A DNA stretch of 64,000 nt. Origin: an uncultured bacterium (GTDB lineage Bacteria > Chlamydiota > Chlamydiia > Chlamydiales > SM23-39). The notes under the pieces were generated by a model. The model saw only the letters and a list, made by a program, of their open reading frames with translations, did no database searches and had not been told where the DNA came from. How positions within the stretch are numbered: the first letter of the stretch is position 1; each line of letters starts with the position of its first letter. Positions 17,903 to 18,114 of the stretch are shown here, piece after piece. A program made the translations under genes and the position numbers. Where the stretch lies: contig CAZXLK010000001.1 of assembly GCA_964641775.1 (NCBI GenBank), positions 144-64,143 of the forward strand. Reading direction: 5' to 3'.

Positions 17903-17968
17903 TACGTGAACGCTTGCGCTTGCGTTACCGTTACCGACACGTTACCGAAAAAAATCGGAAAACGCAAG

Positions 17969-18114
17969 CGCAAACGAAGGGGTCCCCGAAGACGCATCGT
18001 CTTTGGGGTAGAAACGCAAACGAAGGGGTCCCCGAAGACGCATCGTCTTTGGGGTAGAAACGCAAACGAAGGGGTCCCCGAAGACGCATCGTCTTTGGGG
18101 TAGAAACGCAAACG
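17969..18114. repeat. 46-bp direct tandem repeat, 3 full copies plus a partial copy, each containing a hairpin
   Basis: The unit CGCAAACGAAGGGGTCCCCGAAGACGCATCGTCTTTGGGGTAGAAA occurs at 17969, 18015 and 18061, with a partial copy from 18107. The copies appear identical by eye. Confidence 0.9.

Follow-up and report, generated by a model that had tools for sequence, protein, structure and literature searches.

The spacer upstream of the aconitase gene in the chlamydial DNA analysed here, a stretch of 64,000 nt referred to below as the window, holds a perfect tandem array of hairpins, and the question raised by this locus is whether the array belongs to the aconitase gene as a leader, is a functional RNA in its own right, or is repeat DNA that has accumulated in the spacer. 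Comparison across genomes, sequence variation within the hairpin and the absence of the element from related loci make it probable that in the array a REP- or RPE-like palindromic mobile repeat of an environmental Chlamydiae clade has been amplified locally. The original prediction had raised a function at the level of DNA as one option, and a nature of this kind, that of a mobile element, gives the best reading.

The array and its spacer

The two flanking genes are those originally named, an aconitase gene and a DASS/Na_sulph_symp transporter gene, both on the minus strand and both confirmed by Pfam. The upstream cistron (18124–19521) encodes the DASS (Na_sulph_symp) dicarboxylate/sulfate transporter (Pfam 5.9e-148), and the downstream cistron (15938–17893) encodes a 651-aa protein with Pfam Aconitase and Aconitase_C domains. 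The aconitase start codon had been placed at TTG 17902 and is corrected here to the ATG at 17893, which is preceded by GGTAAGA and gives a 651-aa product that matches database protein P0001 from end to end at 100% identity. With the start at this position the spacer extends from 17894 to 18123 and measures 230 nt, and the array together with the adjacent 16-bp stem occupies it.

Tandem Repeats Finder and a repeat search identify 3.2 perfect copies of the 46-bp unit CGCAAACGAAGGGGTCCCCGAAGACGCATCGTCTTTGGGGTAGAAA at 17969–18114 on the plus strand (period 46, 100% matches, 0 indels, score 292), so that the three identical hairpin repeats of the original prediction are present, with the reservation that copy number is insecure for a perfect 46-bp tandem repeat on what is probably a short-read MAG contig. 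It is the single outstanding array that Tandem Repeats Finder reports across the whole window. Each unit contains an 11-bp hairpin, CCCCGAAGACG-CAT-CGTCTTTGGGG, and the exact 25-mer CCCCGAAGACGCATCGTCTTTGGGG occurs three times on the plus strand, at 17984, 18030 and 18076, and not once in 100 shuffles. A second palindrome, GGGGTCCCC, overlaps every hairpin as had been noted, but the competition proposed between the two is one-sided, the 11-bp hairpin dominating the ensemble (73%). The hairpin with its immediate flanks (GGGGT before and TA after) forms three plus-strand modules at 17979–18010, 18025–18056 and 18071–18102, in which the hairpin proper covers 17984–18008, 18030–18054 and 18076–18100. 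An nhmmer profile of the longer composite elements described below matches only these 32-nt modules within the array, with E values of about 1e-10 each (4e-10 for the first module), and the array therefore consists of solitary modules and is not itself a composite element.

The modules alternate with four 11-nt direct repeats of the form A(A/G)CGCAAACG with an A before, found by repeat search on the plus strand at 17966–17976, 18012–18022, 18058–18068 and 18104–18114. The first of these reads AAGCGCAAACG and the consensus form is AAACGCAAACG, which also stands at 18104–18114 as the partial fourth unit. Written in slightly extended form (AAGGGGT-hairpin-TAG, 35 nt), each module is thus bounded by direct repeats in the pattern DR-X-DR-X-DR-X-DR, as would be predicted for one insertion with a short duplication on its flanks that slippage or unequal exchange then multiplied. 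The perfect identity of the copies indicates that amplification would be recent, in support of the local expansion that had been proposed for them.

The remainder of the spacer is taken up by a different structure. Repeat search and folding place a 16-bp stem at 17911–17976, with arms at 17911–17926 and 17961–17976 that are 94% complementary and that enclose three copies of GTTACCG, as predicted; the 34-nt loop contains these copies together with a small hairpin, CCGA-AAAAAA-TCGG. This region has no homologue elsewhere in the window or among the 109 loci searched. A possible outer inverted repeat, read from the sequence, pairs 12 of the 14 positions of CGTGAACGCTTGCG (17905–17918) with CGCAAACGTTCGCG (18107–18120) and would bracket nearly the entire spacer.

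The gene order Sua5-RDD-DASS-aconitase is kept in relatives whose aconitase is 83–85% identical to that of the window, and their DASS-aconitase spacers measure 61 nt (L106 and L107), 98 nt (L104 and L105) or 640 nt (L101), the longest of these containing an inserted PDDEXK_3 gene. In the four syntenic relatives examined, where these spacers are unrelated in sequence, the hairpin was not found. Two further loci, with aconitase 86% (L103) and 83% (L109) identical, show no hairpin in the approximately 110–130 nt of sequence present upstream of aconitase, and contain no DASS gene. The evidence for insertion is consequently a comparison with species at 83–85% aconitase identity and not population data. 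Exact metagenome scans for other copy numbers or an empty site, using the window-specific junction and the unique left part of the spacer, gave 0 matches.

A dispersed hairpin family conserved across species

The hairpin is present in many copies, dispersed through genomes and conserved from species to species, and occurs in either orientation, both between genes and in frame within them. The pattern CCCCGAAGACNNNNNGTCTTYGGGG was scanned exactly in 185,579 genomes, one per species, and matched at least 100 stretches, compared with about 2 expected by chance (our own arithmetic, assuming equal base frequencies). About a third of the matches listed are perfect palindromes from unrelated phyla, found at the same position on both strands and mostly followed by T-runs, which identifies them as ordinary terminators. 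The remaining matches form one family, with at least about 70 copies that carry the wobble T in at least 11 assemblies. Of these copies, approximately 70 among the matches listed, a strict flank filter (GGGGT...TGGGG) kept 67; the loop is GCATC in 53 of the 67, the upstream flank is CGGGGT in an equal number (53 of 67), and the downstream flank is TGGGGT in 38. The original prediction had considered that the unit might prove to be commonly dispersed and free of positional bias, and this is essentially the case for the hairpin core, whereas neither the 21-nt interval between hairpins nor the complete 46-bp unit is found outside the window.

Four of the 11 assemblies are labelled Chlamydiae, Chlamydiales or Parachlamydiales, and the other seven share the same composite elements. 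At least 32 copies are spread over about 1.9 Mb in the MAG CAVSSM01, or about one per 59 kb, a density that equals that of the window with its one locus per 64 kb. The aconitase of CAVSSM01 is 85% identical to that of the window, which places it among the closest relatives with the locus retrieved, and the remaining best aconitase matches are annotated as Chlamydiales or Chlamydiia. A SET-domain/ankyrin gene of the window agrees with the chlamydial assignment. The hairpin had 0 matches in viral contigs and was not matched in plasmid and phage collections, and no description of a chlamydial REP, RPE, MITE or hairpin sequence was found in the literature searched, the coverage of which was incomplete.

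The position of the copies appears unbiased. By rough ORF-based calls, about 11 copies run opposite to co-directional flanking ORFs and 8 in the same direction, and the ORF pairs around copies are convergent in 7 cases, divergent in 11 and co-directional in 19; with respect to local GC skew, the two orientations are divided 20 versus 21. The lack of bias relative to flanking genes and GC skew offers no support for a lagging-strand mechanism involving single-stranded DNA. Outside the composite elements the hairpin occurs alone or in head-to-tail tandems, again in either orientation, with a tandem period of 39 nt (13 codons) at loci L010 and L075 and of 67 nt at L042.

Copies within genes are found in frame in six Pfam-confirmed housekeeping genes, in both orientations and three reading frames. 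Two copies in a Peptidase_S9 gene encode GVPEDASSLGW twice, two copies in reverse orientation in RecN (SMC_N) encode YPKDDASSGTPG, and a single copy in PlsX encodes PQRRCVFGDPG; TamB, the chlamydial MurC-Ddl fusion and NAD kinase each carry one copy in frame. The MurC-Ddl ortholog of another assembly, 58% identical overall, lacks precisely those 11 residues that the element contributes, and alignment of the hairpin-containing PlsX with solved PlsX structures reveals surplus residues at the site of insertion.

Most copies of the family constitute one module within a larger, MITE-like composite, an imperfect palindrome of about 186–256 nt (typically about 210 nt). The composites are bounded by TATAC...GTATA, from which one copy deviates, and these ends are compatible with duplication of a TA target and equally with terminal inverted repeats that include TATA. 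The terminal inverted repeats extend over at least 26 nt, and their sequences, which covary, are of four or more types. Long-range pairing of ATGCCAAGGAGGCGCC..GAGCCAGGC with a partner in the right arm gives a second helix, and two hairpins, one of them the 25-nt hairpin, form the tip. RNAalifold applied to nine composite copies predicts 76 pairs, and compensatory changes are present in 26 of these. Concerted change of the arms fits a stem in RNA or single-stranded DNA as well as transposon ends that match one transposase, and does not discriminate between them.

The identical 25-mer occurs in genomes in which MurC-Ddl is only 58% and aconitase 85% identical. Neutral sequence would have diverged at such a distance, which argues that something keeps the 25-mer constant. 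Candidates are ongoing propagation from masters that are themselves conserved, a conserved enzyme that recognises the hairpin, and horizontal spread, and the identity across genomes with 58%-identical MurC-Ddl could equally mean a function at the level of the host.

Folding, expression signals and competing explanations

Sequence variation within the family bears on which strand would fold. The 101 hairpins in 468 kb of chlamydial loci comprise 24 sequence variants. Since a variant needed at least 10 of 11 pairs to be included, the percentage of paired positions is circular, but the double changes are not, and compensatory double changes are seen at four stem pairs (such as G8-C18 to A-U or C10-G16 to U-A; 19 cells). 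In all 24 variants the closing pair is the same, as are the first two bases of the loop (G-CA-N-C). Positions that depart from Watson-Crick pairing are mostly G·T on the written strand (19 cells), compared with 2 cells, by inspection, on the other, and wobbles on the same strand recur in several independent variants (G5·T21, T3·G23, T4·G22, and a T·G in the neighbouring hairpin A). These observations provide modest evidence that the written strand, that of CCCCGAAGACGCATCGTCTTTGGGG, would be the folding strand. The mismatch in the hairpin of the window has the asymmetry that was predicted for it, being G·U on the plus strand (-17.9 kcal/mol) and A·C on the minus, or mRNA, strand (-14.4 kcal/mol). 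The asymmetry of the 16-bp stem is reversed, with -31.4 kcal/mol on the minus strand and -25.1 kcal/mol on the plus strand.

A promoter scan found no sigma-70-like promoter on either strand of the spacer, and TTCTATGATGC, the motif that lies upstream of aconitase in the relatives, is missing from the spacer of the window. Given both observations, aconitase may be transcribed by read-through from the DASS gene, and a putative read-through transcript would cross three -14 kcal/mol hairpins and the -31 kcal/mol stem, the first hairpin on the mRNA strand lying 23 nt from the DASS stop codon. A terminator scan detected no canonical terminator on the gene strand of the spacer and did not flag the main hairpins as intrinsic (Rho-independent) terminators; only two weak 5-bp terminator-like sites with interrupted T-runs appear on the minus strand, at or below shuffle expectation. 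Rfam 15 yields 0 matches in the window at gathering score and only chance-level matches at E <= 10 within 17500–18500, and nothing for eight loci with composite elements, permissive thresholds included.

Could these hairpins nonetheless have been selected as a cis-regulatory RNA in the DASS-aconitase region, one that sets the ratio of transporter to aconitase through termination or attenuation, RNase processing or transcript stability? The mRNA strand of the spacer is almost wholly structured (-92.2 kcal/mol, z = -3.2 versus shuffles), the hairpins begin so close behind the DASS stop codon and have moderately U-rich, weakly terminator-like tails, and the possible need for read-through and the missing upstream motif also speak for such a control. 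There is also precedent in REP, BIME and Correia elements, for which stabilising, termination or processing effects on mRNA are known (PMC3733652). We nevertheless consider this explanation quite unlikely, since the element is missing from the same spacer in all four of the syntenic relatives examined, the hairpin is found in both orientations, beside unrelated genes and inside coding sequences, it is weaker on the mRNA strand, where the A·C mismatch falls, and it has no Rfam match. For the same reasons (a dispersed repeat, in both orientations, inside genes and missing in four relatives) the proposal of a leader element dedicated to a TCA-cycle gene and concerned with its processing, attenuation or stability is not supported. 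For a mobile repeat, the hairpins in a DASS-aconitase read-through transcript would act only incidentally and not as a selected regulator of aconitase; by analogy, such incidental effects could include stabilisation of the DASS 3′ end, a partial barrier to read-through or a target for RNase. 

A functional plus-strand, antisense RNA, with the hairpins as small-RNA modules or as sites for RNA- or single-stranded-DNA-binding proteins and the approximately 210-nt composites as expressed non-coding RNAs, would account for the same-strand G·T wobbles in several independent variants, for the invariant closing pair and two loop bases in stems that otherwise covary, and for the compensatory changes at 26 of the 76 predicted composite pairs. 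The spacer as a whole also folds better on the plus strand (-101.6 kcal/mol, z = -5.3 versus shuffles) than on the minus strand. However, the same compensatory changes would arise in a transposon whose terminal inverted repeats co-evolve, the variants counted were pre-selected for pairing, and in-frame copies in genes in both orientations are hard to fit to a discrete RNA gene. The plus strand of the spacer has no promoter-like site and there is no Rfam family even at permissive thresholds, all of which makes this explanation very unlikely; of the antisense RNA in the original prediction, the strand preference stands, in that wobbles favour one strand across the family, while the promoter and Rfam searches returned nothing to go with it. 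That the array is an artefact of assembly or a degenerate CRISPR-like relic is exceedingly improbable. Perfect 46-bp tandems are hard to assemble from short reads, and a 25-nt palindromic repeat with 21-nt intervals is superficially CRISPR-like, but a CRISPR array was rejected because the intervals are identical and not unique spacers, and no CRISPR family scores above threshold, the sole CRISPR-type Rfam match in the region lying outside the array and scoring far below the threshold. Misassembly could alter only the copy number and not the existence of an element with at least about 70 independent copies in other assemblies.

Resemblance to known repeats and proposed origin of the array

Judged by analogy, the chlamydial element would behave as REPs and RPEs do, and the composites that carry it as MITEs do. 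With the REPs and BIMEs of Proteobacteria it shares a short (25–35-nt), G+C-rich, imperfect palindrome in many dispersed copies that are mostly intergenic, sometimes clustered and sometimes in genes, and one conserved non-Watson-Crick position in the stem; if transcribed, it would also form hairpins in mRNA just past a stop codon. REPs are defined by a conserved GTAG or CGTC tetranucleotide at one end of the palindrome, and also occur inside genes (PMC3733652). The flanks of the chlamydial hairpin read GGGGT...TGGGG instead, and GTAG follows it in few copies besides those of the window. BIME dimers are typically head-to-head or tail-to-tail, whereas the chlamydial clusters are all head-to-tail, and with the conserved tag wanting and the clusters so arranged two defining features of REPs fail. 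The family further differs in its host, Chlamydiota, in the lack of replication-strand bias, in that no RAYT was found nearby (approximate queries over the loci examined), and in that one sequence is common to many species, REPs usually being species-specific.

In-frame palindromic repeats in housekeeping genes are a textbook feature of Rickettsia, and the likeness to RPEs is that of a palindromic selfish repeat in an obligate intracellular lineage, present in either orientation and several frames and tolerated in frame in housekeeping genes as well as in intergenic DNA, where the window copy itself lies. The chlamydial family is set apart by size and host, the insert being about 33–39 nt compared with roughly 100–150 bp and the host belonging to another phylum, and the 46-nt period in the window is not a multiple of three. 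The composites for their part resemble Correia, NEMIS, ERIC and MITE elements in being non-coding, imperfect palindromes with covarying terminal inverted repeats and a modular interior, present in multiple copies. A solo right terminal inverted repeat of the composite, TTTTCAATCACGAGCGGTATAA, is found in the window on the minus strand at 47243–47264, 17 nt upstream of the ATG of an ORF at 46154–47227; the nhmmer match is weak (E=0.54) and agrees with the consensus at 21 of 22 positions. As to a putative target-site duplication, the observation in the window is that 11-nt direct repeats flank each module. The array differs from a MITE in being without the composite terminal repeats, having only the weak 12/14 outer inverted repeat, and the hairpin module differs in that it also stands alone, outside composites.

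No transposase or other mobilising enzyme was found in the window and the related loci examined. Two approximate queries for Y1 (IS200/IS605-type) transposases returned only chance-level tblastn matches (E > 0.8) in these loci and the window, and all-against-all clustering of ORFs found no gene family recurrently beside the elements, yielding only spurious repeat ORFs, ABC ATPases and membrane-protein paralogs. That the stem, loop and wobble hardly vary would presumably reflect recognition by a putative trans-acting enzyme.

The arrangement of the array suggests how it may have formed. A module of about 35 nt (AAGGGGT, the 25-nt hairpin and TAG) would have landed in the variable DASS-aconitase spacer, and the inserted module would then have been flanked by the 11-bp direct repeats A(A/G)CGCAAACG with an A before. 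The empty site prior to insertion would read ...GCGCAAACG|TTCGCGGG... in this scheme. Slipped-strand mispairing or unequal exchange between the 11-bp repeats could subsequently have produced three identical 46-bp units, a mode of amplification that we infer from the position of the repeats.

A more ambitious reading, which we regard as rather unlikely, is that the 25-nt hairpin is the recognition site of a putative enzyme or binding protein conserved in the clade, or that the approximately 210-nt composites are expressed structured RNAs. Invariant or nearly so in the 25-nt hairpin are G-CA-N-C, its G·T wobble and the G4 tract on either side. If the enzyme version were true, Chlamydiae would possess an active, REP-like mobilisation system that does not involve RAYT, and with either enzyme or RNA the triple array between DASS and aconitase would serve as a functional platform with several sites, and would not be junk.

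For a locally amplified mobile repeat, the practical consequence is that neither annotation nor further study should treat the array as an aconitase leader or a riboswitch-like element; it is better described as repeat DNA that fills a variable spacer. Taken alone the array in the window is ordinary, and it is the family that deserves attention, for its invariance across species and its insertion in frame into genes. Chlamydiae are usually considered repeat-poor, and the identity of the hairpin across species points to active or recently active propagation in this obligate intracellular phylum. The repeat is also a practical marker, as a cause of contig breaks and of variation in protein length in such MAGs.

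Other repeats in the window bear on whether the family is resident in this genome. The core GGTCCCCGAAGAC recurs, as originally reported, at 46128–46140 on the minus strand beside a GGGGACC/GGTCCCC hairpin (46134–46152), and it forms part of what appears to be a decayed hairpin module at 46121–46141 on the same strand, in which GGGTCCCCGAAGAC is followed by an 8-nt deletion that removes the loop and then by TTTGAGG (nhmmer E=0.34, a weak match). This relic and the solo terminal repeat at 47243–47264 suggest that the hairpin family is native to the genome of the window. The spacer that follows the aconitase gene and the one that precedes the DASS gene are likewise full of palindromic repeats, here of a different family based on CTCTGTGGTATCTATCTC / ACCACAGAGATAGATACCACAGAG. 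In the 64 kb available from this genome, small palindromes have as a rule colonised the spacers between genes.

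The DASS-aconitase pair and a possible aconitase promoter

Besides the array between the dicarboxylate/sulfate transporter (DASS) and aconitase genes, the window holds a second dispersed palindromic repeat family, CTCTGTGGTATCTATCTCTGTGGTGAA ... ACCAAGAGAGATAGATACCACAGAGAAAAAAA, with copies at 5497-5548, 15807-15916 and 19552-19641. Members of this family fill the spacers immediately downstream of aconitase and upstream of DASS, so that the gene pair is bracketed by it. In the relative L101, DASS and aconitase are separated by an inserted PDDEXK_3 gene, which has a similar motif on its flanks (TTCACCACAGAGGCACAGAG / CTGTGGTGAA).

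The relatives share a motif, (C)GTTCTATGATGC, that precedes the aconitase ATG by about 30-45 nt (L101 5930-5975; L104 3955-3975; L106 3950-3965; L103 70-85) and is plausibly the -10 region of a promoter belonging to aconitase itself. The window has only CGTTCACGTATTGG at 17894-17910, immediately ahead of the aconitase ribosome-binding site, and its aconitase promoter may therefore have been displaced by the insertion.

The hairpin module within genes and in a second composite context

Duplication of the hairpin module also occurs inside genes of related chlamydial MAGs (L010 4300-4400; L075 3060-3140), where the period is exactly 39 nt, or 13 codons. The duplication repeats the encoded peptides: an S9 peptidase contains two copies of GVPEDASSLGW, and RecN two of YPKDDASS... 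The copies within genes seem to be restricted to multiples of three, in contrast to the 46-nt period of the intergenic array in the window. Five loci from the CAYTXY01 and CAYNWC01 assemblies (L017, L052, L079, L086 and L093) carry the same hairpin inside another conserved context, GGCCCTTCAGGGCCGAGTCAAGCGCC-GGGGT-hairpin-TGGGGGGCTATCTGTTGGTTCGCGGCAAGGAACTTGCCGCCCC...GGGAGGAGAATCTCCCTCC, and this second composite architecture suggests that the module is shuffled between element types.

Other repeats in the window

Two repeat-family relics adjoin a minus-strand ORF at 46154-47227 (357 aa, without a Pfam match). Upstream of its ATG, at a distance of 17 nt, stands a single terminal repeat from the chlamydial composite element (47243-47264, minus strand), whose end, GGTATAAGGA, may provide a -10-like or SD-like sequence, and a decayed hairpin module together with a GGGGACC/GGTCCCC hairpin (46121-46152) follows directly past its stop codon. 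The surrounding region, 43000-51100, contains several diverged direct repeats, each 100-300 nt long, 64-92% identical and spaced 1.6-4.4 kb apart, which point to paralogous genes of one family arranged in tandem. A family member at 44381-45955 encodes a methyltransferase domain, and 47359-48723 is without a Pfam match. At 55694-56573, an inverted repeat with 130-nt arms (55771-55900 / 56372-56501) that are 95% complementary and separated by 471 nt looks like a further MITE or IS-like element, and related copies are found near 40.66-40.94 kb (40659-40944).
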